Made by a program: the position numbers and the translations under genes. From positions 2,332 through 66,331 of IMG/VR virus record IMGVR_UViG_3300047440_000580: 64,000 nt of DNA. One strand, written 5' to 3'. Shown here one piece after another: positions 29,208 to 56,434 of this stretch. Source of the DNA: a virus. How positions within the stretch are numbered: the first letter of the stretch is position 1; each line of letters begins with the position of its first letter. The notes under the pieces were generated by a model. That model did not search any database. It was not told where the DNA came from and saw nothing but the letters and a program-made list of their open reading frames with translations.

Positions 29208-29282
29208 TGGTAGCGCGTAGGGGTTTTGATCCCCTTCCTTCAGGTTGAGAACCTGACAACCTAGCCAGTAGTCGAACGCGCC
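29208..29282 (-). tRNA. tRNA-Glu(CTC)
   Basis: loop TT-CTC-AA; T-loop ATCAAAA; CCA encoded. Confidence 0.85.
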
Positions 29283-29288
29283 GTAAGA

Positions 29289-29400
29289 TGTGCCGTCGTG
29301 GAGTCGAACCACGAACCAGTGGCAGCAGTCCGTTCCTTTTCGCCTCCCAAGGCTACTTCAGGACAGAAAGTGGGATCTGTTGCTGGCCCGCCGGGCGGAC
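29289..29400 (-). ncRNA. tRNA-like RNA: T-arm plus long irregular helix, no anticodon arm
   Basis: CGTGG-TTCGACT-CCACG T-arm; CCAG/CAACAG pairs with CTGCTG/CTGG; imperfect acceptor. Confidence 0.45.
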
Positions 29401-29402
29401 TT

Positions 29403-29475
29403 TGGAGGCCATCCAGGGAGTCGAACCCTGCCCACGTGGTTTGCAATCACGTTTGCCCAGCCAGGACTGACGGCC
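29403..29475 (-). tRNA. tRNA-Cys(GCA)
   Basis: loop TT-GCA-AA; U73; CCA. Confidence 0.85.
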
Positions 29476-29489
29476 AATGTTGACGATGT

Positions 29490-29564
29490 TGGAGCCCCCT
29501 CGGAGAATCGAACTCCGACCGCCTGATTACGAAACAGGCATGCTACCATTAGCACCAAGAGGGC
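29490..29564 (-). tRNA. tRNA-Thr(CGT)
   Basis: loop TT-CGT-AA; CCA. Confidence 0.9.
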
Positions 29565-29565
29565 G

Positions 29566-29652
29566 TGGCGGAAAGTAGAGGAATCGAACCTCAGTCGTAA
29601 GACCCAAACGCTTAGCAAGCGCCGCTGGAGTTCCCAGGCCAGATTACTTTCC
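29566..29652 (-). tRNA. tRNA-Ser(GCT)
   Basis: loop TT-GCT-AA; long V-arm; G73; CCA. Confidence 0.9.
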
Positions 29653-29710
29653 AAACCTACCTGGCCTGCGAGCCAGGTGTCCTAGAAGTCGCAGCCCCTA
29701 GGATCTTCAG

Positions 29711-29778
29711 TCGCTCAGGTGAGAATCGAACTCACTGCGCTGGGCTTATGAGGCTCAGCTGGTTCCAAACCCAGAGCG
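29711..29778 (-). tRNA. tRNA-Met/Ile2(CAT)
   Basis: loop CT-CAT-AA; D-arm GGTT-TGG-AACC; no CCA. Confidence 0.7.
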
Positions 29779-29867
29779 GTTGCGGGGGTAGGAGTTGAAC
29801 CTACCATTGCAAGCGTTAGCTCGCGAGGGGTATGAGCCCTCATTGGCCACCTGGGCCTGTCCCCGCT
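29779..29867 (-). tRNA. initiator-type tRNA(CAT) with long variable arm
   Basis: A1:A72 mismatch, GGG/CCC anticodon stem, loop CT-CAT-AC, extra arm GCGAGC-TAAC-GCTTGC. Confidence 0.75.
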
Positions 29868-29879
29868 ATAACTTGAAAC

Positions 29880-29953
29880 TGGAGCCCCGGGAGAGAGTCG
29901 AACTCTCGATTCCTCCTTACCAAGGAGGCGGTTTGCCGTTGACCTACAGGGGC
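29880..29953 (-). tRNA. tRNA-Thr(GGT)
   Basis: loop TT-GGT-AA; CCA. Confidence 0.9.
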
Positions 29954-30036
29954 ATTCTCGAACACCTACGAACGCTTCAGAGCCTTCCCAACCACCTAGG
30001 CCATGGATGTACCTGGCCTGGTGTCACAACACTTCG

Positions 30037-30112
30037 TGGAGCCCCCGGTGAGAATCGAACTCACGTCCCAGGTTTACAAGGCCCGTATTCTTAGCCACTG
30101 AACTACGGGGGC
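30037..30112 (-). tRNA. tRNA-Thr(TGT)
   Basis: loop CT-TGT-AA; CCA. Confidence 0.9.
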
Positions 30113-30172
30113 GATGCGGCTGGGTTCGCGGGCAAGACCACGACCACTTAGCTCCCTGGCGTCGGGAGTACC

Positions 30173-30247
30173 TGGAGCGGGTAGCGGGAATCGAACCCGC
30201 CATTTCTGGTTGGAAGCCAGACGTGTTGCCACTAGCACTACACCCGC
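30173..30247 (-). tRNA. tRNA-Gly(TCC)
   Basis: loop CT-TCC-AA; U73; CCA. Confidence 0.9.
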
Positions 30248-30252
30248 AAAAT

Positions 30253-30350
30253 TGGGAAGATCGGCCGGTATCGCACCGGGCCAGGACGTCTCCCGGCTCA
30301 TCGCGTTTTCGGATTCACAATCCGCTGACTTTTCGTAGTCCACGACCTTC
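30253..30350 (-). tRNA. atypical tRNA-His(GTG) with about 29-nt variable region
   Basis: G-1:C73 8-bp acceptor GAAGGTCG/CGATCTTC, loop TT-GTG-AA, extra hairpin GCCGGGA-GACG-TCCTGGC, T-loop TGCGATA, CCA. Confidence 0.7.
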
Positions 30351-30423
30351 AGAGCGGGATGCGGGAATCGAACCCGCGCTTCAGGCTTGGGAAGCCCGTT
30401 CGCTACCACTACAACAATCCCGC
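30351..30423 (-). tRNA. tRNA-Gly(CCC)
   Basis: loop TT-CCC-AA; no CCA. Confidence 0.85.
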
Positions 30424-30544
30424 AACGTGTGACAACCGGCTTTGACCCCTTGCAAGGGGGTTCCCACGCCACATCCCGCTGGATAATCGCGAATCACCAG
30501 ACGAGAAGGCCGGCCAAGCTTTAAGACCTCCAAAAGGGCCACAC

Positions 30545-30618
30545 TGGTGCGGGTAGAGAGAATCGAACTCTCGCTTCGGACTTGGCAAGCCCGTTCGCTA
30601 CCATTACAACATACCCGC
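30545..30618 (-). tRNA. tRNA-Gly(GCC)
   Basis: loop TT-GCC-AA; A73; CCA. Confidence 0.9.
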
Positions 30619-30622
30619 GAAA

Positions 30623-30690
30623 TGGAGGGGACCCGACGGCTCTCACGTCTTCGAGCGGTTGGGCGCCGCCAGGTGTTTCCCACTGTCCCC
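30623..30690 (-). ncRNA. highly degenerate tRNA-Gly-like cloverleaf with CCA
   Basis: GGGGAC/GTCCCC acceptor, U73, CCA; loop CG-CCC-AA; T-loop TGAGAGC. Confidence 0.5.
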
Positions 30691-30691
30691 G

Positions 30692-30766
30692 TGGTCTGAG
30701 AGGTGGGATTCGAACCCACGGCCTCCTGGCTCCAGACCAGGCCGTCTACCGCTGACTTACTCCCAG
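30692..30766 (-). tRNA. tRNA-Pro(TGG)
   Basis: loop TC-TGG-AG; CCA. Confidence 0.85.
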
Positions 30767-30823
30767 ATGATGCCCTGTTCGTCCCACCACACTGCGTGGG
30801 CACTGCGTCCAGGCTACGTAGAG

Positions 30824-30896
30824 TCGGGATGGTGAGTTTCGATCTCACGACCTCGTGTCCCCCAGACACGCGCGCTCCCAGCTGCGCCACACCCCG
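30824..30896 (-). tRNA. tRNA-Pro(GGG)
   Basis: loop CT-GGG-GG; T-loop ATCGAAA; no CCA. Confidence 0.85.
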
Positions 30897-30905
30897 TTGC
30901 TGAAT

Positions 30906-30980
30906 TGGTCTGGATGGGTGGAATCGAACCACCTACGTCCTCGCTCCGAAGGAGGGTGTCTACCAATGACTTACATCCAG
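30906..30980 (-). tRNA. tRNA-Pro(CGG)
   Basis: loop TT-CGG-AG; CCA. Confidence 0.8.
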
Positions 30981-30981
30981 A

Positions 30982-31050
30982 TGGTCCCGAATGCCGAGTT
31001 GAACGGCTCCCCCGGTTTGACCCGGTGTGCTGACGTTACACTAACTAAGG
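30982..31050 (-). pseudogene. degenerate tRNA (Asp-like, 6-nt anticodon loop)
   Basis: T-arm GCCG-TTCAACT-CGGC, CCA, mismatched acceptor, loop GTCAAA. Confidence 0.5.
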
Positions 31051-31052
31051 GA

Positions 31053-31129
31053 TGGTCGGAAATACACGATTCGAACGTGCGGCCTCTCGGACCCGAACCG
31101 AGCGCTCTACCAGGCTGAGCTAATTTCCG
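31053..31129 (-). tRNA. tRNA-Pro(CGG), second copy
   Basis: loop TT-CGG-GT; CCA. Confidence 0.9.
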
Positions 31130-31133
31130 GGAC

Positions 31134-31511
31134 TTACAACTTTGAAGGCATCAGAGGGGGGAGGGCTGGAGGGACATTGTCTGTTGCAACGCTCCCGTCC
31201 GTTTCGCTTGGCCCTTCCCAGATGGTGCCGTATCCTTGCCTGTACGCCATGTCCAGGACCTTCTGCATCTTGGCGCAGTTTTCCTTGGTCATGCTCGTGC
31301 AGTCCCACCCCATGTCGTGCTCCCAGCCGAGCTGGAACACGTACTTGAAGGCGGTCCAGACTCGCTTCCAGAATCCCTTCCAGTTGCGGTGCTGGTAGTG
31401 AAGAGTCATGCCGATCTCGACGTCGTACTCGGCGACGGCCATGTGACCCTTGGTCCCACAGTCGCACTCGATGTACTCACGCGTGATCTCTACTTGAGGC
31501 TTCACTTTCAT
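31134..31511 (-). CDS. hypothetical protein inside tRNA array
   Basis: 125 aa; A of ATG is the terminal A of tRNA-Gln CCA. Confidence 0.7.
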   Translation of the reverse strand: MKVKPQVEITREYIECDCGTKGHMAVAEYDVEIGMTLHYQHRNWKGFWKRVWTAFKYVFQLGWEHDMGWDCTSMTKENCAKMQKVLDMAYRQGYGTIWEGPSETDGSVATDNVPPALPPLMPSKL

Positions 31512-31585
31512 GGTTCCCCCACAACGGTTCGAACGTTGATCGTCTGAGTCAGAGTCAGGTGTCCTGCCAGTTGGACGATAGGGGA
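31511..31585 (-). tRNA. tRNA-Gln(CTG)
   Basis: loop CT-CTG-AC; CCA. Confidence 0.9.
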
Positions 31586-31589
31586 ATAA

Positions 31590-32402
31590 CTATTCTTCTA
31601 CGAGCTCCGAGAAATCCTCGGGCTTGGCATTCTTCGCGTCTTCGCAGCTCTTCATGAGCTCCTTCTCCTTCTCGTCGCGACGATTGGGAGACCAGAAGAA
31701 GCAGAGCTCGTTGAAGAGTCCGTAGAGGAACTCGCCGAGCTCGTAGGTGACGCGGACGTCCGTGTTCTCGTAGCCGTCCGTCGTCCTGTCCGAGACCCAA
31801 CTGAGCCCGCGCTCAAACTTCTTGGAGCCCTTCCGCTTGAAGCCCATCTTCTTGGGCTTCTGCTTCTTCCACTTGTGCTTGCACAGCACCACGGTCTGCT
31901 TCATCGTGAGAGGCAGGTTGAGCAGGTAGGCCCAGGGCGTGAATTCGATCGCGTAGGAGTTTCCACGCTTCTCCAAGGGTACGTCCTCGCATCCTTCCTC
32001 CCAGTATGCTCCGATTCCGTGAGCAGAGACCGTATGGTCCTGCATGTCCCATTTCTCGATGTCGTCGTAGTTCGACATCTCGTAGTACTTGTAGACTTCG
32101 ATCGCCGTCAGCTTCGACTTGCGGTCGGGGTCGCGCTTGGCCACCACGTTCTCGTCCTTGAGGTACTCGTCCAGGTTCGCGTGACAGAGCTTCGCGACCA
32201 GGTCCAGCACCAGCGGATCGAACTTCTTGAGGACGGCGACCAGATCCTTCAGCCGGACCTTGCCCTTGATCTCCAGGCCGTGGTGCCAGGCTTCGAGGAA
32301 GAGGTGAGTCGTGGTGTTGATCTTCCACGTCTTGTACTTCTTCTTCTTGCCGTCCCACTCGCTGGCCCAGAACCCGTCCTTCTTGAGGATGACTTTGTCC
32401 AT
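31590..32402 (-). CDS. hypothetical protein inside tRNA array
   Basis: 270 aa, phage-like codon pattern; ATG abuts tRNA-Arg CCA. Confidence 0.75.
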   Translation of the reverse strand: MDKVILKKDGFWASEWDGKKKKYKTWKINTTTHLFLEAWHHGLEIKGKVRLKDLVAVLKKFDPLVLDLVAKLCHANLDEYLKDENVVAKRDPDRKSKLTAIEVYKYYEMSNYDDIEKWDMQDHTVSAHGIGAYWEEGCEDVPLEKRGNSYAIEFTPWAYLLNLPLTMKQTVVLCKHKWKKQKPKKMGFKRKGSKKFERGLSWVSDRTTDGYENTDVRVTYELGEFLYGLFNELCFFWSPNRRDEKEKELMKSCEDAKNAKPEDFSELVEE

Positions 32403-32478
32403 TGGTACTCCTATCCAGAGTCGAACTGGAATCCCACCCTTAGGAGGGGCGTGCTCGGATCCATTGAGCTATAGGAGC
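32403..32478 (-). tRNA. tRNA-Arg(CCT)
   Basis: loop CT-CCT-AA; CCA. Confidence 0.9.
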
Positions 32479-32492
32479 ATTATACCACAGAT

Positions 32493-32939
32493 TCATTTCT
32501 TTGTAACGGCAATCGCATACATTTCGCCGTTTGGCTTACGCCACCTGCGGAGAAGGCCTCTGATATCTAGTACGTGGATACCATTTTCCCGCTTGTTCTT
32601 TTTCGTCCGCTCGGAGTCCACGATCAAGAACCTGTCCCCGATCGTGCAGGCGATCACCGCCCAGTGGGTGTCCCCGTCGCAGGCCATGATGAGAGGGCAT
32701 CCCTTGCCGAGGTACTTCTTCAGGGCCGCCTTGGCGTGGGTGGCCTTGGTCGTCTCGTACACCTCTGAAGTGTAGCCGAGGTGATCCAAGGCATTCAACA
32801 CCCCTGCCTCCGTGGTGCCGTCGTCGTCCGTGCCGGCGAGCTGGCGTAGACGGTGTTCCCCGACATTCTTCCCGAAGAGCTTCAGGACGTTCCGGATGGA
32901 CGCCGCCCCGCATGAGTTCTTCGTCTCCTGGAACCTCAT
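32493..32939 (-). CDS. C39-family cysteine peptidase
   Basis: QE..NSCGAAS, GTT, HWAVI, LIVDS catalytic pattern. Confidence 0.8.
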   Translation of the reverse strand: MRFQETKNSCGAASIRNVLKLFGKNVGEHRLRQLAGTDDDGTTEAGVLNALDHLGYTSEVYETTKATHAKAALKKYLGKGCPLIMACDGDTHWAVIACTIGDRFLIVDSERTKKNKRENGIHVLDIRGLLRRWRKPNGEMYAIAVTKK

Positions 32940-32949
32940 ACGATAAATA

Positions 32950-33025
32950 TGGTCTCCTCGGAGGGATTCGAACCCCCACCCCTGGGCTTAGAAGTCCCGG
33001 ATCTGGCCACTTGAATTACGAGGAG
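32950..33025 (-). tRNA. tRNA-Arg(TCT)
   Basis: loop CT-TCT-AA; CCA. Confidence 0.85.
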
Positions 33026-33026
33026 G

Positions 33027-33101
33027 TGGTGGAGCCACCGGGAATCGAACCCGGGTCTGAACCTTGCGAAGGTCCCGTTCTACCGCTGTCACTATGGCCC
33101 C
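33027..33101 (-). tRNA. tRNA-Ala(CGC)
   Basis: loop TT-CGC-AA; G3:U70; CCA. Confidence 0.9.
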
Positions 33102-33337
33102 GTGAAGAACTCTTCGAACTTGTCCAGAACCAGACTTTCCGAGCGGTCGTACTTCTCGCAGAAACCGTCTTGGTGGACGCTGAGGAACCGCGTCTCTTTG
33201 TGCTTCGCGTGTTCGTAGGTGTTCTCGGCGCAGTAGCCGAAGTTCCCTAGGGGGAAGTCACCGTGTCGACATGTTTTGCACGTAGGACTGATTCGGTACT
33301 TCAACTCCCGCAACACTTTCAGCTTGTTCTGGTCCAT
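33092..33337 (-). CDS. Cys-rich hypothetical protein inside tRNA array
   Basis: 81 aa CKTCRH..C..C; ATG overlaps tRNA-Val CCA; stop inside tRNA-Ala 5' end. Confidence 0.65.
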   Translation of the reverse strand: MDQNKLKVLRELKYRISPTCKTCRHGDFPLGNFGYCAENTYEHAKHKETRFLSVHQDGFCEKYDRSESLVLDKFEEFFTGP

Positions 33338-33812
33338 GGTGTCCCCGGATGGAATCGAACCATCGTCTCCACCTTGTCACGGTGGTGTGCTCCCATTTTA
33401 CCACGGGGACTTCTTTTTGTACAACGGTCATGATGATCGGCTCGAACCCGTTGTGCTTCAGGAGTCGCGCGGTCTTGATCGTCAGATCTACACATCCTCG
33501 CCAGATGCCTGGGTCGGACGCCTTCCTCTTGATCACCCAGCGTCTTCCGACGTTGGCGCCGTAGGGCCCGTGGTCGACCACCTTGGCCACTACCACCTTG
33601 CCTGTCCGGGGGTTTTCGAGCTTCACCCGGGTGCCGCAGGGGAGGTCCCTGTGGGCGATCCCGATGTCGTCCGGTCCGAGCTCTCTGTGGAGGCAGACTG
33701 CTTCGCCTCCCTTCAGTTCGTCGTCCTCCCATCCGAAGATCGATGCGTTGCACGGAGTCGGGGGAGGGGGCGCGCTCATGAAGAGAGCGATCAAAGCTGT
33801 CAGTAGATCCAC
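33258..33812 (-). CDS. RlpA-like (DPBB) lytic transglycosylase family protein
   Basis: AHRDLPCGTRVKLEN..GKVVVAKVVDHGPY...VDLT; N-terminal hydrophobic segment; frame runs through tRNA-Val. Confidence 0.7.
   Translation of the reverse strand: MDLLTALIALFMSAPPPPTPCNASIFGWEDDELKGGEAVCLHRELGPDDIGIAHRDLPCGTRVKLENPRTGKVVVAKVVDHGPYGANVGRRWVIKRKASDPGIWRGCVDLTIKTARLLKHNGFEPIIMTVVQKEVPVVKWEHTTVTRWRRWFDSIRGHHGPEQAESVAGVEVPNQSYVQNMSTR
33337..33410 (-). tRNA. tRNA-Val(GAC)
   Basis: loop GT-GAC-AA; CCA. Confidence 0.85.
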
Positions 33813-33838
33813 ATCGGACCAGCCTTTCTGCCTGAGAG

Positions 33839-33913
33839 TGGTGGAGCTAACGGGGGTCGAACCCGTAATACCGGTCTGCCGAACCAGCGTGTTCCCATTA
33901 GCACTATAGCCCC
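33839..33913 (-). tRNA. tRNA-Ala(GGC)
   Basis: loop TC-GGC-AG; G3:U70; CCA. Confidence 0.85.
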
Positions 33914-33942
33914 ATTGTAACACGGAAACTTCTAAAAGTAAA

Positions 33943-34017
33943 TGGTGCCCTCCCACGGAACCGACCCGTGATCCCTGGGGTTTCAATCCAGTGCTCTTCC
34001 GATTGAGCTAAGAGGGC
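33943..34017 (-). tRNA. tRNA-Phe(GAA)
   Basis: loop TT-GAA-AC; T-loop GTCGGTT; CCA. Confidence 0.8.
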
Positions 34018-34026
34018 ATGATGAAG

Positions 34027-34102
34027 TGGTGACGCGTATGGGTTTTGATCCCATTCCTCCTGCTTGAAAGGCAGGCCACCTAGCCAGTAGTAAGAACGCG
34101 CC
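34027..34102 (-). tRNA. tRNA-Glu(TTC)
   Basis: loop CT-TTC-AA; T-loop ATCAAAA; CCA. Confidence 0.85.
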
Positions 34103-34103
34103 G

Positions 34104-34181
34104 TGGCCCCACGTACGGGAATCGAACCCGTCTTCCTCTTCCGTGACAGGGAAGTGCCGCCTGCCAGGCGGCTCACATGGG
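34104..34181 (-). tRNA. tRNA-Asp(GTC)
   Basis: loop CT-GTC-AC; G73; CCA. Confidence 0.85.
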
Positions 34182-34187
34182 AAATCT

Positions 34188-34286
34188 TGGTACCCCCGTA
34201 GGGAATCGAACCCTAGTCGTCACGCTTAAAAGGCGTGCTTCCGTCGCTGCCCTTAGGTGAGCAGGCCGTATCCATCGGGCGGGGGC
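34188..34286 (-). tRNA. tRNA-Lys(TTT) with greatly expanded D region
   Basis: loop CT-TTT-AA; about 42 nt between acceptor and anticodon stems incl. hairpin CTGCTC-ACCTAA-GGGCAG; CCA. Confidence 0.75.
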
Positions 34287-34287
34287 A

Positions 34288-34377
34288 TGGTACACGCGCT
34301 AGGGATCGAACCTAGTCTGAGCCGGTAATCTGCCGGAAAGGATCTATAAGGTCCCTCTGACTCCAAGTCTCGCGTGC
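34288..34377 (-). tRNA. tRNA-Ile(TAT) with extra arm carrying a GAT loop
   Basis: loop CT-TAT-AG; second arm CCGG-CAGATTA-CCGG; D-arm GACT-TGG-AGTC; CCA. Confidence 0.7.
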
Positions 34378-34378
34378 G

Positions 34379-34454
34379 TGGTGAACCAGGTGGGGGTCGA
34401 ACCCACAGCCAATGGATTAAGAATCCACTGCTCTGCCAGTTGAGCTTCTGGTCC
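34379..34454 (-). tRNA. tRNA-Lys(CTT), canonical
   Basis: loop TT-CTT-AA; CCA. Confidence 0.9.
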
Positions 34455-34457
34455 AAA

Positions 34458-34545
34458 TGGTCCCCCGACTGGGAATCGAACCCAGATCACACGGCTTAAG
34501 AGGCCGGTCGATGTGCCGTTAGGCTTCCAATCATCGGGCCAGGGG
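34458..34545 (-). tRNA. tRNA-Lys(CTT) with expanded D region
   Basis: loop CT-CTT-AA; CGATG/CATCG stem enclosing GCC-TAAC-GGC hairpin; CCA. Confidence 0.75.
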
Positions 34546-34548
34546 ATG

Positions 34549-34627
34549 TGGCGTATCCTCTAGGAATCGAACCTAGCTTGACGTGAGTTAACAGCTCACC
34601 GCAATCAACCAGACATGCCAAGGATAC
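34549..34627 (-). tRNA. tRNA-Asn(GTT)
   Basis: loop CT-GTT-AA; G73; CCA. Confidence 0.85.
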
Positions 34628-34631
34628 AAAG

Positions 34632-34707
34632 TGGCTCCAGGGGCAGGCTTCGAACCCGCATCTTCTCCATTAACAGTGGAGCGGCTTACCAGTTAGCCTA
34701 CCTTGGA
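34632..34707 (-). tRNA. tRNA-Asn(GTT), second copy
   Basis: loop CT-GTT-AA; CCA. Confidence 0.9.
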
Positions 34708-34708
34708 A

Positions 34709-34786
34709 TGGTACCCCAGACGGGATTCGAACCCGCACATCCTGCGGTCTGAACGCAGTGACTCCTACCAATTGGTCTACCGGGGC
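34709..34786 (-). tRNA. tRNA-Leu(CAG), short variable loop
   Basis: loop TT-CAG-AC; CCA. Confidence 0.85.
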
Positions 34787-34789
34787 AAA

Positions 34790-34866
34790 TGCAGGGGCGT
34801 GCTACACATCATACACCAACTCGTGCATAGAGGTCACGAGTCCTGGGTCGGTCCAGGTTCTCCCCT
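34790..34866 (-). ncRNA. cloverleaf-like RNA of unclear identity
   Basis: AGGGG/CCCCT closing stem, CCTGG/CCAGG arm, ACTCGTG-ACCTCTATG-CACGAGT arm; no TTC T-loop. Confidence 0.4.
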
Positions 34867-34868
34867 TC

Positions 34869-34945
34869 TGTGCTCTTGATGAGATTCGAACTCACACCTG
34901 TCAGCCTTCTCAGGACTGTGCCTCTACCAATTGGGCTACAAGAGC
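34869..34945 (-). tRNA. tRNA-Leu(GAG), short variable loop
   Basis: loop CT-GAG-AA. Confidence 0.85.
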
Positions 34946-34984
34946 GTCGCCGGTGTTTTAGCTGCTTTACCGGTAGCAGTATAG

Positions 34985-35063
34985 TGGTACACCCGGCGGG
35001 ATTCGAACCCACACTGTTCCTGATTCGTAGTCAGGTGGCCTATCCAGTTGGCCGGACGGGTGC
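34985..35063 (-). tRNA. tRNA-Arg(ACG)
   Basis: loop CT-ACG-AA; CCA. Confidence 0.9.
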
Positions 35064-35064
35064 A

Positions 35065-35142
35065 TGGTGTCCCTGGCGAGATTCGAACTCGCACTGATCC
35101 ACCTTCGGAGGGTGGTGGCCTATCCAGTTGGCCGACAGGGAC
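35065..35142 (-). tRNA. tRNA-Arg(CCG)
   Basis: loop CT-CCG-AA; CCA. Confidence 0.9.
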
Positions 35143-35146
35143 AAAT

Positions 35147-35430
35147 TGAAGTGGAACGTAAGCGGGGTTCTGTTCAAGAACGATCATTCGTCTGGGATGA
35201 CTGTCACCAGTCACCTCTAGCTCTCAACCCGTCAGCATCGGCCGGACCAGCCCCTGACTGCTCGAGATTGCTCCAGATGGACTCCCCCGTTTCAGCCGAG
35301 CATTACCTCGGTTCGTCTCTGTTGAGAGTATCTCCAGGTCACCCCGGACCAGTCGTTAGCTGGCATCCTGTCCTATGGAGCCCCGACTTTCCTCTGGTTT
35401 GCGAAGCCAGCGATCGTTGCATCCACTTCA
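35147..35430 (-). ncRNA. rnpB: RNase P RNA, compact bacterial A-type
   Basis: P1 TGAAGTGGA/TCCACTTCA; CR-I GAGGAAAGTCGGGG; CR-V ACAGAACCCCGCTTA (P4 covaries); P2, P3, P5, P7-P9, P12, P15-P18 identifiable; P13/P14/P19 absent. Confidence 0.92.
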
Positions 35431-35435
35431 AAACT

Positions 35436-35509
35436 TGGTAGTCCCTGAGGGAGTTGAACCCACGTAGACGGTTTGTAGGACCGCCACTCTACCGTTGAGT
35501 TAAGGGACC
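35436..35509 (-). tRNA. tRNA-Val(TAC)
   Basis: loop CC-TAC-AA; CCA. Confidence 0.85.
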
Positions 35510-35517
35510 GAAAAAAT

Positions 35518-35610
35518 GCAGGTTGGCTCGCCGTCGACGTTGTCCCGAAGGAGACGGTAGAGCGGATTACCCGGATGCTCTGCATCCCAGACTCACGAGG
35601 TCTGACCTGC
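35518..35610 (-). ncRNA. unknown multibranch structured RNA
   Basis: GCAGGT/ACCTGC closing stem; CAGAC-CTCGTGA-GTCTG; GGATGC/GCATCC; CCGTC..TCC-TTCG-GGA..GACGG. Confidence 0.45.
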
Positions 35611-35614
35611 AAAT

Positions 35615-35688
35615 TGGTACGCCATGAAGGAATCGAACCCTCGTCACCCGGTAATCGGCCAGGCGCACTACCATTGTGCTAACGGCGC
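35615..35688 (-). tRNA. tRNA-Ile(GAT)
   Basis: loop CC-GAT-TA; CCA. Confidence 0.8.
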
Positions 35689-35702
35689 ATGAGAGAAAAG
35701 AC

Positions 35703-35773
35703 GGCCGGCGTCCTTCCGCTAGACTACCAGGGACCGAGGTCCCCGGGCGGGATTCGAACCCGCGTTTCCGGCC
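35703..35773 (-). ncRNA. circularly permuted tRNA / YrlA-like tRNA-mimic module
   Basis: GGCCGG-AAAC-[GCGGG TTCGAAT CCCGC]-[CCGGGGAC CTCG GTCCCTGG]-TA-[GTCT AGCGGA AGGAC]-G-CCGGCC. Confidence 0.8.
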
Positions 35774-35776
35774 CAG

Positions 35777-35850
35777 TGCTTGCAGAGAGATTCGAACTCT
35801 CAGGAAGGTAGGTTTGAGCTACCTATGTCTACCTGTTGCATCATGCAAGC
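35777..35850 (-). tRNA. tRNA-Leu(CAA), short variable loop
   Basis: loop CT-CAA-AC; no CCA. Confidence 0.85.
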
Positions 35851-35931
35851 GATGCGAATACCCGGCCCCAACCCGTCGCCGGTATTCTGACAGTCCCCAC
35901 CCTAGACTGTCTTGCCCAGTGCTGAGGAAAT

Positions 35932-36003
35932 TGGCATGTGCTGTAGGAATCGAACCCACTCCTGGAGTTTTGGAGACTCTTTGGACACCATGTCCTAGCA
36001 CAT
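35932..36003 (-). tRNA. tRNA-Trp(CCA)
   Basis: loop CT-CCA-AA; short D-loop; G73; CCA. Confidence 0.85.
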
Positions 36004-36004
36004 A

Positions 36005-36080
36005 TGGGGTGATCGACGGGGTTCGAACCCGCGCTACGTGATCCACAATCACGCGTGCTTCCTGTTACACTACGAACACC
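36005..36080 (-). tRNA. tRNA-His(GTG), canonical
   Basis: G-1:C73; loop TT-GTG-GA; CCA. Confidence 0.9.
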
Positions 36081-36083
36081 ATA

Positions 36084-36169
36084 TGGTGCGCGGGCTGAGA
36101 GTCGAACTCAGCTGCCACGAGGGAACCGGTTTACAGCCGGCCCAGGGAACCGTCCCTGTCGTCCCGCGC
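36084..36169 (-). tRNA. tRNA-Tyr(GTA)
   Basis: loop CT-GTA-AA; long V region; CCA. Confidence 0.9.
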
Positions 36170-36226
36170 ATATGCGGCCCGAAGGCCGCTTCATCGTCAA
36201 CTATTCGATTGTCAAGTACTGCTCAG

Positions 36227-36297
36227 TGGAGCCGACGGGAATCGAACCCGCCACGGTCTGCTTGCAAGGCAGTCCTGTCACCTTGAATCTCGACCCC
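36227..36297 (-). tRNA. tRNA-Ala(TGC)
   Basis: loop CT-TGC-AA; G3:U70; weak D-arm; no CCA. Confidence 0.8.
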
Positions 36298-36310
36298 AAG
36301 AAACCAAATC

Positions 36311-36401
36311 TGGCGGAAGAAGGAGGTCTCGATCCCCAGCCGACTCACGCCGACCACACCGCTTTCGAAACGGGTCCCAGTCCAAACCGGGTTCTTCTTC
36401 C
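36311..36401 (-). tRNA. tRNA-Ser(CGA)
   Basis: loop TT-CGA-AA; long V-arm; T-loop ATCGAGA; CCA. Confidence 0.85.
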
Positions 36402-36403
36402 AG

Positions 36404-36491
36404 TGGCGGAGAGAGGAGGTATCGATCCCCAGGCGCTTTCACGCTCGAGCCGCCTTCCAAGCGGTCCCGGTCCCTGACCGGTTCTCTCTCC
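36404..36491 (-). tRNA. tRNA-Ser(GGA)
   Basis: loop TT-GGA-AG; long V-arm; T-loop ATCGATA; CCA. Confidence 0.85.
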
Positions 36492-36492
36492 G

Positions 36493-36578
36493 TGGCGGAG
36501 GGCGGAGGATTCGAACCCCTGCCTGACGGTACCATCCCGGTGTTCAAAGCCGGTCGCAGTCCAACTGCGGCACCCTCC
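36493..36578 (-). tRNA. tRNA-Ser(TGA)
   Basis: loop TT-TGA-AC; long V region; CCA. Confidence 0.85.
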
Positions 36579-36583
36579 GTTTT

Positions 36584-36757
36584 TTATTCTCCGATCACCC
36601 CCTTCGCTTCATCATCCAGCGGCAGCAGTCTGTCCCGGTGCCGCGCCATCTTTCGTTTTCCGTCCGTGACGATGAAGAGTCCGGTCGAGGTCGGTCCACT
36701 GAGGATCTCGACCTCGATGTTCCCTTCATCATCCACCCCGAAGGTTAGGGCCTTCAT
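36584..36757 (-). CDS. small hypothetical protein
   Basis: MKALTFGVDDEG..., TGATG coupling with upstream gene. Confidence 0.55.
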   Translation of the reverse strand: MKALTFGVDDEGNIEVEILSGPTSTGLFIVTDGKRKMARHRDRLLPLDDEAKGVIGE

Positions 36758-37248
36758 CAGGACCTCGCGAGGTACCCCTTCACGATGTGGTCGGCAGCGT
36801 GGCTTGCAGCCCATGCGTCCGGCTTGATCACCGCGTTGAAGCCCTGCCCGAGAACCAGGCCCACCATCTCCTGCACGACATCCGAGGACTTGTACTGCGT
36901 GTCCGGGTTGGCGTCGATGTGGATGGTCAGCTTGTTGGCCTCCGGGATCTCCGAGTTGAGCTCCATGCCGAGCTCGACGGACATCCAGGCTTCCTTCAAG
37001 AGCCTCTCCCTCAGCGACCGGATACGAGTCATCCGCTCACGGCTGAAGAAGCACCGACCTCCCTTGCCCGGGGTGAGGATGATCACCACCGTGATGTACT
37101 CCGTCACGTTCCCCGCGTTCTGCGAGTCCGTGCCGATGACGAGTTCACGGTCCGGCGATTCAGCCATCAGGGCCCGTATCTCGGCCTTGAGGTCCACCGT
37201 CTTCTTTCCTACCATCGTCTTCCAGGTCTTCTCGATCATGGTCGCCAC
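36757..37248 (-). CDS. RNase H-like YkuK (DUF458) family protein
   Basis: LVIGTDSQ, RLLKEAWMS, IHIDAN, IKPDAWAASHAADH. Confidence 0.85.
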   Translation of the reverse strand: MATMIEKTWKTMVGKKTVDLKAEIRALMAESPDRELVIGTDSQNAGNVTEYITVVIILTPGKGGRCFFSRERMTRIRSLRERLLKEAWMSVELGMELNSEIPEANKLTIHIDANPDTQYKSSDVVQEMVGLVLGQGFNAVIKPDAWAASHAADHIVKGYLARS

Positions 37249-37269
37249 CTTTCCTGTGTAGCCTGGTAC

Positions 37270-37344
37270 TGGTTCCGAGAGAGGGACTCGAACCCCCGCC
37301 GCCCTGGTTCAAAGCCAGGTGTCCTGCCGTTAGACCATCCCGGA
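37270..37344 (-). tRNA. tRNA-Gln(TTG)
   Basis: loop CT-TTG-AA; CCA. Confidence 0.9.
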
Positions 37345-37372
37345 AAACTAAAAAGGCCCCCTTTCGGGAGCC
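37345..37372 (-). terminator. terminator-like hairpin directly before first tRNA
   Basis: GGCTCCC-GAAA-GGGGGCC followed by TTTTTAGTTT. Confidence 0.6.
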
Positions 37373-37403
37373 CTCCATCAGAACCTATCTTAATTCTTGC
37401 CTA

Positions 37404-38139: not shown

Positions 38140-38197
38140 CCGCGACTTGTGAATCCATTATAAGTGGACTCACACGGGTTGTAAAGGAAAAAGTGCT

Positions 38198-43135: not shown

Positions 43136-43328
43136 TGCTCGGATCGCGCGTCAAGTCCTGGACCTCGGGCAGTCCGAAGATGAGCGTCCCTTCGTCGAAG
43201 ATGTCCTTCTGGCGGAGCATGCGGATCCCGTCCTCCTTGAAGAGCTCGAGAGCCCGCTCGTACTCGGACTCGTCGAAGGAGGCGTAGCCGGACCCACTCT
43301 TGAAGACGACCTTGTAGCGCATGTTCAT
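43125..43328 (-). CDS. hypothetical protein
   Basis: MNMRYKVVF..., ATGA overlap with rtcB stop. Confidence 0.55.
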   Translation of the reverse strand: MNMRYKVVFKSGSGYASFDESEYERALELFKEDGIRMLRQKDIFDEGTLIFGLPEVQDLTRDPSNEN

Positions 43329-47800: not shown

Positions 47801-48298
47801 CTAGGCTCCTGTCGCCTGCTCGTTCTCTGGGATGTACGGCGCGATCTTCTCGACGACGGTGGCCAGCTTGGCGGCGATCTCGGTGGTGGAAGCCCCGTTG
47901 GCCGCCAGCTCGTGGATGATGCCGATCATGCCGAGCGCCCAGGTCATCACGGCCTGGGCCTTTCCCACCTGCTGGAGGATGTCGGAGTTCAGCCAGCCAT
48001 AGGACCAGGAGGCGGACTCATCCGAGTCCGGATCGTGGGGATTGTCTTCCAACGTGGCCCCGCGGTTGGCTGCCTCACGACCGCTCTTCTCGGCCTCGAG
48101 GATCTTCTCTTGGACTCGGACCTGCTCGAGGTAGAGCTCGATCTTCCCCTCGAGCAGGAGGTTCTTGTCGGACAGCTCCTGGTTCTTGTTCCTGAGGAGC
48201 TGGACCTCCTGCACGATCTTCTCGGCGCAGGTGACACATGTCCCAATCTTCTGCTCCATCCCGGTGACGAGAGGAGCTCCGCAGGTGAGGCACGGCAT
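47801..48298 (-). CDS. Zn-ribbon/coiled-coil protein with Rmf-like segment
   Basis: C..C...C..C, coiled coil, GREAANRG...NPH....SWSYGW. Confidence 0.55.
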   Translation of the reverse strand: MPCLTCGAPLVTGMEQKIGTCVTCAEKIVQEVQLLRNKNQELSDKNLLLEGKIELYLEQVRVQEKILEAEKSGREAANRGATLEDNPHDPDSDESASWSYGWLNSDILQQVGKAQAVMTWALGMIGIIHELAANGASTTEIAAKLATVVEKIAPYIPENEQATGA

Positions 48299-52985: not shown

Positions 52986-52991
52986 GATACC

Positions 52992-53062: not shown

Positions 53063-53069
53063 GGTATCC

Positions 53070-53585: not shown

Positions 53586-53599
53586 CGAAAGGCCTCACC

Positions 53600-54607
53600 A
53601 TGAAGGTCCCCCACGTTCAGCCCGCGCCGATGAAGCGCCTGTCGACCGTGATCGTACCCCCGGATGCCCCGCGCATCTCGACGGGGTTGCCTTCCCTCGA
53701 CACTTGCCTTGCCGGCAGTGACGAGGAGCCGGCCGGGCTGCCCGAAGGGGCGTCCGTCCTCATCAGCGGCGCGCCAGGAGGTGGCAAGTCCACCCTGGCC
53801 GCCCTGATGGCCAACGCCTCCGCCCTCTCCCTCATCCTCCACGGCGAGGAGCCCGAGCGGAACGTGAAGAAGCGGTGGGAGCGCCTGAAGCTCACCCAGG
53901 ACCCGTACCTGGCCTCCCTGAGGGACGTCGAGGTGGCGCTGGACAACGTCCGTGACGCCCAGGCCAACCTGGTGGTGGTCGACTCGGTCCAGACGCTGGT
54001 CCGCGAAGGCAAGCGTCGGCACGACTACCAGGCCATGGCCGCTGAGGAGCTCGTCGGTACCATCTGCGGCTCGGGCGGGGTGGCGGTGCTTGTCTGCCAC
54101 GTCTCCAAGGACGGCACGGCTCACGCCGGCGACCAGAGCCTGGCCCACCTCGTCGACGTGCACCTCCACGTCACGACGAACGCCAAGAAGGGTGAGCGGA
54201 AGCTGGAAATCCGGAAGAACCGCCACGGGCGGGCCGGCTTCGAGGTTCCGCTCACCATCACCCAGTTCGGGGTGGACGTCGGCACCCCCTCAGCGATGGG
54301 GAGCCTCGCCTCGGCCCGGTCGGGGCTGGAGAAGGCCGCTGAGAAGGCCATCGAGCTCCTGCTCATCGGAAAGACGCTGACGGGGTACGACTTCGACCTG
54401 GCGGGCGTCTCCGGCGGCATCTGGCGGGCCGGTCTCGAGATGGGGGCCAAGCGCCTCCAGCGAGACGGCAAGGAGATCGAGTGCATCAAGGTGCAGGGCC
54501 GCCGTGGCTTCCGCATCAAGGTGGAAGGCCCTCTCCCCGAGGGCGCCATCGTAATCCCCTTCCCGGTGAACACCGTGCCGGGAGAAGAAGACAACGTGAA
54601 CGAATGA
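53600..54607 (+). CDS. RadA/Sms-like RecA-family ATPase
   Basis: STGLPSLD, GAPGGGKST, VVDSVQT, HVSKDG..AG...LAHLVD, KNRHG. Confidence 0.85.
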   Translation: MKVPHVQPAPMKRLSTVIVPPDAPRISTGLPSLDTCLAGSDEEPAGLPEGASVLISGAPGGGKSTLAALMANASALSLILHGEEPERNVKKRWERLKLTQDPYLASLRDVEVALDNVRDAQANLVVVDSVQTLVREGKRRHDYQAMAAEELVGTICGSGGVAVLVCHVSKDGTAHAGDQSLAHLVDVHLHVTTNAKKGERKLEIRKNRHGRAGFEVPLTITQFGVDVGTPSAMGSLASARSGLEKAAEKAIELLLIGKTLTGYDFDLAGVSGGIWRAGLEMGAKRLQRDGKEIECIKVQGRRGFRIKVEGPLPEGAIVIPFPVNTVPGEEDNVNE

Positions 54608-54942
54608 CCCGAGACGACGAGGGGCACCGGGCCCTGTTTGCCCTCCTTTTCCTGGCCCTCTTCTGGATCTGCCTGGGCTGCTGCCACGGGTGCTCCTCGT
54701 CGAACGCGGGCGAAGCCCCGTTGGACATGGGGGTTTCCCAGAGCGTAGACCAGCACCCCGAGCGGTGCCGGGGACCGCAGGACTCCGGCAAGGTCATCTG
54801 GTGGGTCTTCCGGCCCGACCAGGGGATCAACGAGCTCGTGCTGGAGCCGGTGGAGGCCATCGTCCGGCAGGTCGGCTCGAAGTACGTCTGCAAGAACCAC
54901 GCCAAGGAGCAGCACGGCTTCTGGTGGGAGCAGAGCAGATGA
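54604..54942 (+). CDS. putative lipoprotein
   Basis: hydrophobic N-terminus ending CLGC. Confidence 0.55.
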   Translation: MTRDDEGHRALFALLFLALFWICLGCCHGCSSSNAGEAPLDMGVSQSVDQHPERCRGPQDSGKVIWWVFRPDQGINELVLEPVEAIVRQVGSKYVCKNHAKEQHGFWWEQSR

Positions 54943-55238
54943 GCTCGGACCGGATGATCGACCCGTACGACCCGGTCCCCGAGGCTGCGGCGGCGGCCGA
55001 TGTTTCACCGAATCTACAGGCAGATTCGGCCGAAAGCATCGTCCTCGCGCTGGCAGCGGCGGACCCGCTCGCCTTCGTGGCGGCGGTCCCGAAGGAGGAG
55101 GGGCTGGGGGTCATCTTCCACCGGAAGTACACGGCCTTCCTCGAGTGCGTCCTCTGCCACGGGGAGATCCCCCACGGCCACACGGACTCCTGCCCCTGGT
55201 GGCGGGCGGAATGCTACAAGAAGGAGCGGGGACTATGA
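54939..55238 (+). CDS. hypothetical protein
   Basis: C..CH...H...CPW; coupled. Confidence 0.55.
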   Translation: MSSDRMIDPYDPVPEAAAAADVSPNLQADSAESIVLALAAADPLAFVAAVPKEEGLGVIFHRKYTAFLECVLCHGEIPHGHTDSCPWWRAECYKKERGL

Positions 55239-55501
55239 TCAAGGTGCAAGACATCATCGGGCACGGGCCACGGAACGCGGACGCCGCCCAGGTCCAGACG
55301 GTCGTCGACCTCATCAAGGGAAGCTCGGAGCTCCAGACGAACTTCTTCCTCAACTTCCAGGGGCTGGCGGCCGAGCTGCTCGTCCAGTCGAAGCAGGGGA
55401 AGGGGACCGCCACCCAGGACTTCCGGGACACCTGCGCCTGGCAGGCGGCGAACATCAACCGGTTCGTGGCGGCCGTGAAGAAGAAGCTGGGGGCCACGTA
55501 G
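55235..55501 (+). CDS. hypothetical protein
   Basis: 88 aa, coupled. Confidence 0.55.
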   Translation: MIKVQDIIGHGPRNADAAQVQTVVDLIKGSSELQTNFFLNFQGLAAELLVQSKQGKGTATQDFRDTCAWQAANINRFVAAVKKKLGAT

Positions 55502-55663
55502 ATGTTGGACGCGTTCATCATCGACGAGATCCGGCGCCGGGAGGAAGTGGAAGACCGTCCGACCGTGGACATCCCCTACTGGGACCCGGACTGGACCCCG
55601 CCCGAGCCGATGGACACCGGCAGCTCGGACCGGGGCGTCACAATCATCGACATGAACCCCTAA
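55502..55663 (+). CDS. small acidic protein (not in ORF track)
   Basis: MLDAFIIDEIRRRE...RGVTIIDM, 53 aa; TAGATG coupling. Confidence 0.65.
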   Translation: MLDAFIIDEIRRREEVEDRPTVDIPYWDPDWTPPEPMDTGSSDRGVTIIDMNP

Positions 55664-55682
55664 CCTGTGGTATAATGGTACC

Positions 55683-55859
55683 ATGGCGACAACGGATCGG
55701 CTCGGCAAGGCGTCTGTCCTGGTGACCATCCTCCTCGGGCTGAACACCCTCTACGAGGGGCACGTCAACCGGCGGCGGAACCGGGAGCTGGACGAGAAGG
55801 ACCGGAAGATCCGGGACCTAGAGGACCGGCTCAAGAAGCTGGAGCGGGAGAAGAAGTGA
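55683..55859 (+). CDS. small TM/coiled-coil protein (leaderless; not in ORF track)
   Basis: CTGTGGTATAAT-GGTACC-ATG; MATTDRLGKASVLVTILLGL... Confidence 0.6.
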   Translation: MATTDRLGKASVLVTILLGLNTLYEGHVNRRRNRELDEKDRKIRDLEDRLKKLEREKK

Positions 55860-56434
55860 TGGGCGAGGCGCTGCACAAGCTGGTCTTTCTGGACATCGAC
55901 GGGGTCGTGAACTCGGGGCGGAACTACCACGAGTGGAACGCGGCCCACGACGAGGCCCTTCAGCGGAAGCGGGAGCAGGGGACCGTCGGGATGACGGGCG
56001 GGGACGACCGGTGGGTGACCCCGGCCGACGACCCGTTCGTCCTCAAGCTCTTCGACGAGGAGAACGTCGGCTACCTGAACCGCATCACCCAGGAGGCCGG
56101 GGCGAAGATCGTGGTCTCGAGCTCCTGGCGGATGTTCTACGCCCGGCACTTCGACCACCTGGTAGGAATCCTGGCCGGGGCGGGCGTCACCGCCGAGGTG
56201 ATCGCGCCGACCCCCTGTCACATCCCCCACCGCGGGGCGGCCATCGACGGCTTCCTCCAGTCGAACTTCAAGGGGAAGTCGGTCCACATGGTCATCCTGG
56301 ACGACGAGCCGAAGTACAGCTTCACCCAGAACTGCGACCCCTGGCTGGTCCAGACGGACGGGGCGAAGGGGCTGCAGGAGAAGGACATCGCCCGGGCCCT
56401 CAAGGTCCTGAACGGAAGACGATGGAACGGATGA
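55856..56434 (+). CDS. HAD-domain protein (Swiss Army Knife RNA-repair-like)
   Basis: VFLDIDGVVN, IVVSSSWR, VILDD, VQTD. Confidence 0.85.
   Translation: MMGEALHKLVFLDIDGVVNSGRNYHEWNAAHDEALQRKREQGTVGMTGGDDRWVTPADDPFVLKLFDEENVGYLNRITQEAGAKIVVSSSWRMFYARHFDHLVGILAGAGVTAEVIAPTPCHIPHRGAAIDGFLQSNFKGKSVHMVILDDEPKYSFTQNCDPWLVQTDGAKGLQEKDIARALKVLNGRRWNG

Follow-up and report, generated by a model that had tools for sequence, protein, structure and literature searches.

Phage tRNA clusters are now viewed as weapons against tRNA-cleaving defences, and how dozens of packed tRNAs are matured has hardly been asked. Here we describe a 64,000-nucleotide (nt) stretch of viral DNA (hereafter the window), corresponding to bases 2332–66331 of the 73,655-base pair (bp) IMG/VR viral record IMGVR_UViG_3300047440_000580 (CheckV completeness, 36%). 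Its minus strand carries an array of 46 tRNA genes that also contains a reduced RNase P RNA and a gene for a YkuK/DUF458 protein, an RNase H-like nuclease. Our main new result, and the most interesting lead, is that YkuK-family nucleases are near-obligate residents of phage tRNA operons. Synteny in five relatives further suggests, at a probability that we put at roughly 60%, that the minus strand is a translation-autonomy region with a conserved core and lineage-specific add-ons, a mix-and-match kit and not one fixed module. The same joint figure covers the proposed source, a jumbo phage of ~205 kb from soil or rhizosphere that carries baseplate genes of myovirus type, and the proposed composition. 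The core would comprise a block of deformylase, ribosome modulation factor (RMF)-like, ORF188, SLOG-like and ORF149 genes followed by a single co-oriented tRNA operon (ORF, open reading frame). The add-ons of this lineage would be the RNase P RNA, held in common with the closest relative only, and an Fpg–RtcB gene pair between the deformylase gene and ORF188.

A protein identical to that encoded by ORF270 of the window was found on a 204,762-bp contig, and the genome is therefore probably about 205 kb long, that of a jumbo phage. The window stretch is contained in 23 DNA sequencing runs from soil or rhizosphere, and almost whole in about 20. It has a G+C content of ~60%, its minus strand carries nearly all of its genes, and genes for baseplate-wedge proteins and glycosyltransferases are found at coordinates below those of the tRNA array. 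A megablast search with 3 kb of the array returned no match among isolate phages. The array and its principal elements are as follows.

29208–37344, minus strand: tRNA operon with 43 cloverleaf and 3 decorated tRNA genes for all 20 amino acids (ARAGORN, Rfam and manual folds)
37270–37344, minus strand: tRNA-Gln(UUG), the first gene of the array, also directly upstream of the YkuK gene in the relatives G022, L285, L282 and L287
36757–37248, minus strand: YkuK/DUF458 (PF04308) RNase H-like nuclease gene inside the array (E = 1.4e-33)
35689–35775, minus strand: circularly permuted tRNA-like element (closing stem, T arm, closed acceptor hairpin and D arm) with a weak YrlA-like match in Rfam
35143–35430, minus strand: reduced class A RNase P RNA of 288 nt without P13/P14 (RF00010, 166.9 bits against a gathering score of 100)
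29156–29199, minus strand: GC-rich hairpin and U-run directly 3′ of the last tRNA, Glu(CUC), from a fold of the spacer at 28808–29207

The initial annotation, made from the letters alone, had counted about 46 tRNAs for all 20 amino acids, most of them with an encoded CCA end, and had found no Leu UAA or UAG, Val CAC or Arg UCG anticodon. The inventory agrees on every point. ARAGORN with default settings reports 35 tRNAs at 29208–37344, on the minus strand only; Rfam adds two at its gathering score and places several long-arm tRNAs slightly below it. Rfam, relaxed ARAGORN and hand-read folds together contribute eight additional tRNAs, giving 43: Cys(GCA) with U73, Ser(GCU), Glu(UUC), Lys(UUU), a long-arm tRNA with a UAU-centred loop, Tyr(GUA), Ala(UGC) with G3:U70, and Ser(CGA). 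Decorated tRNA-like genes occupy three of the spacers and bring the total to 46: one is a Lys(CUU) whose D-loop has 20 nt, another a second His that bears a large variable hairpin, and the last a second CAU whose D arm is tiny. CCA is encoded in 37 of the 43, the four anticodons are all absent, and at least 14 junctions between neighbouring array genes measure 0–6 nt. Under standard wobble rules the set reads 59 of the 61 sense codons. Only UUA and CUA, together 0.22% of the codons in 70 window genes, have no phage tRNA. This supports an effectively self-sufficient set, and phage translation would thus not depend on the host tRNA pool.

The strong hairpin and the U-run at the 3′ end are probably the operon terminator, judging from the fold, and a promoter scan returned no convincing promoter for the array. 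Another terminator-like hairpin (37351–37376, minus strand) lies just upstream of tRNA-Gln, and a sigma-70-like promoter with an 11/12 match (38157–38185, minus strand) is antisense to a plus-strand fatty-acid hydroxylase gene. Decorated or odd tRNAs stand next to canonical ones at 34188–34548, 30253–30350, 29654–29725 and 34288–34379 (minus strand). Large inserts occur in the D region of Lys(UUU) and of the Lys(CUU) copy, and the second His has an odd T-loop. The long-arm tRNA shows either a 9-nt loop or a mismatched 31–39 pair around UAU, and Cys(GCA) has an A31·C39 mismatch.

We know of no function for the YkuK/DUF458 family; a family study by Knizewski and Ginalski in 2005 reportedly predicted a nuclease. 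The window protein is a clear member of the Pfam family, with a conserved acidic active site, D41–E86–D112–D153, in which D41, E86 and D112 are invariant among 30 sequences and D153 is invariant in a five-sequence alignment. Its AlphaFold model (pLDDT 90) has an RNase H-like fold, the closest solved structure being a distant one, RNase HI (TM ~0.4). The gene is a true array resident, as the initial annotation had it, and here and in most of the viral homologues examined it is embedded in, and co-oriented with, a tRNA array.

A single-sequence search of viral contigs with YkuK returned no match; a profile search did find homologues, and among its best 80 of at least 574 loci we counted the tRNAs within ±5 kb. 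At least five tRNAs lie within 5 kb in 64 of these 80 loci. A tRNA lies within 500 nt of the gene in 67 of them, tRNAs occupy both flanks in 50, and all tRNAs at these loci are on the same strand as the YkuK gene. The 80 loci form 51 clusters at 90% identity and 8 at 50%, and six of the eight deep clusters are array-linked. Isolated phages show the same placement: YkuK lies in the array next to a PTH2 gene in Ruegeria phage RpAliso, whereas in Vibrio phage KVP40 and in the Pseudomonas phage Milchi it borders the tRNA cluster and has in its vicinity a DUF2828/DUF7788 gene whose product is annotated as RNA-binding. A tblastn search placed such a gene within 5 kb of YkuK in 5 of the 80 viral loci; the two isolate genes are at L113:4517–5953 (KVP40.0300) and L115:10645–12033 (Milchi), next to or near YkuK and the tRNA cluster. 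A literature search, with Burroughs and Aravind (2016) outside its coverage, found no published report of YkuK in tRNA arrays.

The second unusual resident, the RNase P RNA, had likewise been noticed in the initial annotation and is a genuine part of the array. Its first base lies 5 nt downstream of the CCA of tRNA-Val(UAC), its last base directly adjoins tRNA-Arg(CCG) with 0 nt between them, and its alignment spans positions 1–367 of the RF00010 model. It shares with bacterial class A RNase P RNA (RF00010; Escherichia coli M1 RNA, rnpB) the CR-I and CR-V regions, helix P4 and the core as a whole; CR-I carries a C-to-G change, and a compensatory G-to-C change in CR-V keeps P4. It differs from bacterial rnpB in being viral, in its length of 288 nt, in the deletion of 43 model positions (P13/P14), in its short P3 and P12, and in lying inside a tRNA operon and not in a separate transcription unit. 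P13 and P14 help to bind the tRNA T-loop. Because they are also missing in some bacterial and all archaeal type A RNAs, their loss is compatible with membership of RF00010.

Two motif scans of IMG/VR with Rfam follow-up yielded ten other large viral contigs (up to 463 kb) in which all tRNAs read in the direction of the RNase P RNA, in most cases with a tRNA 0–6 nt away from it. Compensatory change is seen at 27 of 40 consensus pairs across nine viral copies, with covariation in the P4 columns; five of the copies lack P13/P14, including those of L071, L010, L006 and L012. The matches in L009, L014 and L015 are full-size, lie at contig edges without a tRNA array and look like host flanks. A blastn search of 50,697 isolate phage records gave only three RNase P matches, all in bacterial-looking or mislabelled records, and thus none in a genuine isolate phage, and a literature search found no published description of a virus-encoded RNase P RNA. 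A 214-nt sequence in L197 (G025:C1:312469–312682), a 476-kb record that IMG/VR classes as a provirus, covers the whole RNase P model at 48.9 bits, a few kb from the YkuK gene of that record, which also encodes RtcB. It may be a miniature RNase P-like RNA that the curated threshold misses.

Two soil metatranscriptome contigs match this RNA and nothing beyond it. The first measures 228 nt and falls entirely within the RNA, with a single mismatch. The second, from another study, is 286 nt long and spans 35145–35431 end to end at ~94% identity; in it both partners of one P12 pair are lost, an A·C pair becomes G·U, and a U–A pair is swapped for C–G in the P15–17-type hairpin; those in P12 and in this hairpin are compensatory. 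These contigs hint at, and do not prove, a discrete, stable and structure-constrained RNA. Matches from one further RNA run were short partial pieces with unlike flanks, probably from the RNase P of other organisms, and we discarded them. The sequencing-run search with the window stretch listed no RNA run.

How far these elements travel together was examined by synteny and co-occurrence, for which the genes around and inside the array are needed.

47801–48298, minus strand: 165-residue protein with a weak RMF-like domain, next to the deformylase gene, also in G022
45377–45958, minus strand: peptide deformylase (PF01327, E = 4.1e-37), in the conserved block upstream of the array
43325–44488, minus strand: RtcB RNA ligase (PF01139, E = 9.3e-125), an accessory gene between the deformylase gene and ORF188
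39785–40243, minus strand: small SLOG/DprA-like (YAcAr-type) protein, in the backbone just upstream of the array
39445–39894, minus strand: ORF149, in the backbone just upstream of the array
32493–32939, 31590–32402 and 31134–31511, minus strand: C39-like peptidase gene, ORF270 and ORF125, a trio inside the array, split by tRNA-Arg(CCU) and tRNA-Gln(CUG)
55856–56434, plus strand: stand-alone HAD_SAK_2 phosphatase (PF18143, E = 6.7e-22), in a separate transcription unit

In the closest relative, L285 (YkuK 94% and ORF270 65% identical), the whole array is present on 12 kb in the gene order of the window. It runs from the fatty-acid hydroxylase gene through tRNA-Gln(UUG), YkuK, Ser, His, Trp, Leu(CAA), Ile and Val(UAC) to the RNase P RNA (172.6 bits), which has the same two tRNAs on its flanks as in the window. 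It continues with Arg(CCG), Arg(ACG), Leu(GAG), C39, ORF270, ORF125, a PD-(D/E)XK nuclease gene and glycosyltransferase genes. Among the relatives only L285 keeps the RNase P RNA. L282 and L287 (YkuK 58%) have deformylase, ORF188, SLOG, ORF149, tRNA-Gln, YkuK and an array with C39–ORF270–ORF125, then the nuclease and glycosyltransferase genes; their arrays contain a transfer-messenger RNA (tmRNA) and a cREC domain, without an RNase P RNA. G022 (YkuK 54%) has the order RMF-like, deformylase, ORF188, SLOG, ORF149, tRNA-Gln, YkuK and array. It keeps both the deformylase gene and ORF188 with no Fpg or RtcB gene between them, and its HAD gene is 30 kb away. L281 encodes RtcB, cREC, NAD-salvage proteins and PTH2 near an ORF270 homologue, and G016 holds YkuK, C39, RtcB and tmRNA within one array. 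The peptidase–ORF270–ORF125 trio stays inside the array in L280, L282, L283, L285 and L287. The synteny thus identifies the core as the deformylase block plus tRNA-Gln, YkuK and the array with its trio. Judged from gene order, the RNase P RNA, tmRNA with cREC, RtcB and PTH2 appear to be interchangeable accessories around it.

The cREC_REC gene is followed directly by the tmRNA inside the array at L282:8147–8951 and L287:7004–7833; the window lineage has no tmRNA at that site, and its RNase P RNA is elsewhere in the array. The cREC domain has been predicted to process 2′,3′-cyclic phosphates (Iyer et al. 2021, PMC7824862).

The initial annotation had proposed that all these parts form one counter-defence module of supply, processing, repair and decoy, and co-occurrence among large phages was to decide. 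The outcome went against it. Among 12 contigs with the RNase P motif (10 with the RNA in a tRNA array), none has YkuK or HAD and two have RtcB; in L071, another RNase P contig, the distance between RtcB and the RNA is 7 kb. Of 35 YkuK contigs of at least 40 kb, 6 have HAD, 2 have RtcB and none has an RNase P RNA above threshold, and the nine closest relatives of RtcB include one with YkuK and none with the RNase P RNA. RtcB has at least five tRNAs within ±10 kb in 20 of 80 viral loci and no tRNA in 43 of them. HAD_SAK_2 has at least five within ±5 kb in 4 of 80 and no tRNA in 66, and is accompanied by RtcB in 2. Among isolates, tallies by organism place YkuK or HAD in groups (Vibrio, Cronobacter) that are largely distinct from the groups with RtcB. 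Only YkuK, deformylase and the array are conserved together, and the co-inheritance or operonic linkage that would mark a tRNA-supply and RNA-repair system is not seen.

In the translation-autonomy reading, the operon would be transcribed into long precursors of more than 40 tightly packed, mostly CCA-encoded tRNAs, at one RNase P cut per tRNA, and each cut at a tRNA 5′ end would at the same time leave the CCA-ended tRNA before it with no more than a few extra bases. The phage ribozyme would be freed from the same transcript through the processing of its two flanking tRNAs; it would probably borrow the host RnpA protein and would raise or secure the capacity for 5′ processing. YkuK could act either on the array transcripts or on R-loops at the array. 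The mature set, reading nearly all codons, would make phage translation independent of the host tRNA pool, whether that pool is lost to shut-off or to tRNA-cleaving defences. RtcB, if present, would reseal 2′,3′-cyclic-phosphate/5′-OH breaks, and the deformylase would serve the additional protein synthesis. We lean towards damage being part of the selective pressure, in view of the decorated duplicates, the conserved tRNA mimic, and the rescue and repair genes in sister arrays.

A bolder version of this reading, which we offer tentatively, is that the phage YkuK/DUF458 proteins are dedicated tRNA-operon nucleases which, with a tRNA-punctuated RNase P ribozyme, give some jumbo phages their own pre-tRNA maturation pathway. 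A precursor of 40-plus genes would then become a complete decoding set without reliance on host processing capacity, and a first function would be assigned to the DUF458 family. It is also possible that YkuK is a true RNase H that removes R-loops at a heavily transcribed, GC-rich array and so protects replication without processing RNA. The structures nearest to its model are those of RNase HI enzymes and of RNase H domains in complex with RNA/DNA hybrids, its DEDD site is intact, the strict co-orientation fits co-expression with the array, and Majorek et al. (2014, PMC3985635) assign the family to the RNase H1 clade. Yet the structural similarity is distant, the neighbours of YkuK in other phages are RNA-centred (peptidyl-tRNA hydrolase and DUF2828/DUF7788), and a role at R-loops would not require a gene placed between tRNAs.

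We consider it unlikely that the region does no more than boost translation, with the array, RNase P RNA and deformylase matching G/C-ending codon use and late synthesis after host shut-off, no specific link to anti-phage tRNases, and RtcB and HAD acting as unrelated general repair or nucleotide enzymes. The tRNA set does mirror codon use: CNN and GNN anticodons are numerous, and no codons other than the two rarest are left uncovered. The deformylase and RMF-like genes are conserved beside the array, and family searches of the window proteins recognized no defence or anti-defence gene adjoining it. However, a set for 20 amino acids far exceeds the filling of rare codons, and the canonical/decorated pairs (Lys, His and CAU) and the conserved permuted mimic are hard to reconcile with codon supply. 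Moreover, sister arrays with cREC, tmRNA, PTH2 and RtcB in or beside them point to damage and rescue. The single integrated module, selected as a unit against tRNA-cleaving defences, we regard as improbable. Much of the proposal stood: the tRNA set, the RNase P RNA and YkuK are real, every part is present and looks catalytically intact, and RtcB does occur near arrays in a quarter of its viral loci. RtcB, an RNase P RNA and an array also occur together in three other lineages (G006/G010 and L071), and G016 combines an array with YkuK, C39 peptidase, RtcB and tmRNA. HAD and YkuK homologues adjoin peptidyl-tRNA hydrolase genes in Shewanella phage 1/4 and RpAliso, and the concept itself has been published for jumbo phages (PMC7824862). 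What did not stand is the unity of the parts. Their co-occurrence is weak in all directions tested, G022 lacks RtcB at the equivalent site, sister phages have tmRNA and cREC in place of the RNase P RNA, HAD is rarely near tRNAs, and unrelated genes are interspersed. RtcB, furthermore, needs no 3′-phosphatase, and the expected partners of HAD, an ATP-dependent ligase and a polynucleotide kinase (PNK), were not found in the 36%-complete record. Finally, that the array and RNase P RNA are bacterial DNA mis-assembled or mis-binned into a viral contig is barely credible: the host-flank-like matches in L009, L014 and L015 look like such cases in IMG/VR, but here phage genes stand on both flanks of the array in one contig. 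The same arrangement recurs in an independent sample (L285, 65–94% protein identity), the stretch is present in the soil and rhizosphere DNA runs, and the RNA is reduced and tRNA-punctuated, as in ten other large viral contigs.

Several points weigh against the translation-autonomy reading itself. The RNA lacks P13/P14, and with no rnpA found in the 73.6-kb record its activity would depend on a host protein. The Logan RNA-library contigs demonstrate presence and hint at ends, carry no information on strand or processing, and may reflect DNA carry-over. The profile that retrieved the 80 top-scoring YkuK loci had itself been made from array-linked members; there is much redundancy among these loci (51 clusters at 90% identity), and in two of the deep clusters neighbouring tRNAs are scarce or absent. 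Transcription of the array as one unit, catalysis by the RNase P RNA and contact of YkuK with RNA are predictions from sequence. Searches of the 73.6-kb record, 36% of the genome, gave no match for RnpA (PF00825), TROVE, a CCA-adding enzyme, an ATP-dependent RNA ligase (PF09414) or PTH2; as so much of the genome lies outside the record, this is no evidence that the phage lacks these families, and PNK, Rnl, a CCA-adding enzyme, Ro/TROVE and rnpA may be encoded elsewhere.

The idea of tRNA supply and RNA repair as a jumbo-phage counter-defence had already been spelled out, with a parts list of RtcB, stand-alone Swiss-army-knife HAD phosphatases, CCA-adding enzymes, Ro/TROVE with tRNA-like RNA, and tRNA provisioning (Iyer et al. 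2021, PMC7824862, which builds on Burroughs and Aravind 2016). The window resembles those systems in being from a large phage with many tRNAs, RtcB, a stand-alone HAD and a tRNA-like RNA, and in the proposed aim of translation under attack on host tRNAs. It differs in that its HAD is unlinked to the array, the expected partners (ATP-dependent ligase and PNK) are unmatched in the partial record, and the parts do not co-occur across relatives. In that study HAD is assigned to ATP-dependent ligase pathways and not to those of RtcB, and there is no mention of RNase P or YkuK, which leaves the maturation parts as the new elements. The supply-and-repair idea is thus published, and the link between YkuK and arrays is quantified here. 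Tested against relatives, the picture of a fixed "supply–process–repair–decoy" module gives way to interchangeable accessories around a core of tRNA-Gln, YkuK and array. Isolate phages rich in tRNAs (KVP40, RpAliso, and cluster C and M mycobacteriophages with RtcB) share the large tRNA clusters interleaved with small genes. KVP40 and RpAliso carry YkuK homologues, and RtcB is common in mycobacteriophages; a difference is that the blastn search of isolate records found no RNase P RNA in a genuine phage. Some large phages seem to bring processing parts along with the substrates. A slimmed RNase P ribozyme appears positioned to be excised by the reaction that it would catalyse, and an RNase H-fold protein is among the most regular protein residents of phage tRNA arrays. 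The locus offers a concrete handle on both DUF458/YkuK and minimal RNase P RNAs.

The remaining protein parts named in the initial annotation are present with intact motifs. RtcB has all catalytic residues, and an alignment to solved structures of this ligase matches its motifs D-x-x-C, N-H, H-S-G-S-R, H-H-N and S-H-G-A-G-R. The deformylase has all three catalytic motifs (G-x-A-A-x-Q-type, E-x-C-L-S and H-E-x-x-H). The deformylase, Fpg/Nei glycosylase and RtcB genes are separated by 2 and 54 nt, a spacing from which they are probably co-transcribed. In HAD_SAK_2, the DxDG, SSSW and DD motifs are invariant in an alignment that left out the L168 homologue, which has an in-frame stop. The gene is on the opposite strand, separated from the array by 19 kb and from RtcB by 11 kb. 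The association with RNA ligase, kinase or tRNA genes expected of an RNA-repair phosphatase was not found, the 73.6-kb record having no PF09414 ligase, and HAD_SAK_2 is probably not part of the translation unit. The L168 homologue (L168:9220–9699), from a viral genome of 210 kb, adjoins an array of 26 tRNAs at a distance of 3.7 kb from YkuK; its stop could reflect a pseudogene, a sequencing error or an alternative code.

The tRNA mimics of the initial annotation are represented by the permuted tRNA-like element, which is kept in the same Leu–Ile spacer of L285 at 85% identity with compensatory stem changes. YrlA and its Ro60 (Rsr) partner are often encoded together with RtcB. The element resembles YrlA, a bacterial Y RNA bound by Ro60, in its T arm, closed acceptor-like hairpin and D arm, with RNA ends at the anticodon-arm position. 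It differs in having a closing stem of only 6–7 bp and no Ro-binding helix. It scores 24.1 bits against a threshold of 69 for RF02553, and the 73.6-kb record has no match to the TROVE protein that would accompany a Y RNA.

The ~160-residue neighbour of the deformylase matches RMF weakly and independently in two phages (the window and L199:14831–15289; E = 0.002 and 6e-5, both below the Pfam cut-off), and may be a phage ribosome-hibernation-like factor. The SLOG/DprA-like gene is kept upstream of the array in G022, L282 and L287, and a gene annotated as DprA-like lies inside the tRNA array of Ruegeria phage RpAliso; L199:16799–17209 and L114:2162–2551 are further loci of this kind. Within the trio, ORF125 has a weak PHROG match only (E = 4e-4). 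ORF270 has no usable ESM Atlas match and no family, and its model (pLDDT 94) gave no match in the Protein Data Bank by Foldseek and a best VIA-align Z of 3.3. ORF270, ORF81, ORF149, ORF188, the neighbours of HAD and others have no family in Pfam or PHROGs. A match of 41870–42148 to ribosomal protein S21 (E = 0.003, below threshold and without a conserved homologue) was not used.

The 27-kb span that holds these parts is interspersed with other genes, for Fpg, a DinG-like helicase, SprT-like and IscA-like proteins, fatty-acid hydroxylase, M54 and C39 peptidases and a KaiC-like ATPase. After the array, a PD-(D/E)XK nuclease gene and a long glycosyltransferase/sugar-nucleotide cluster (7697–28023, minus strand) keep their order in all the relatives examined, L280, L282, L285 and L287, at 48–88% identity. 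Elsewhere, a viral contig of ~84 kb carries a GOLLD RNA (L083:4301–5661, 182 bits) whose neighbours are a tmRNA, a tRNA array of 21 genes and RtcB.

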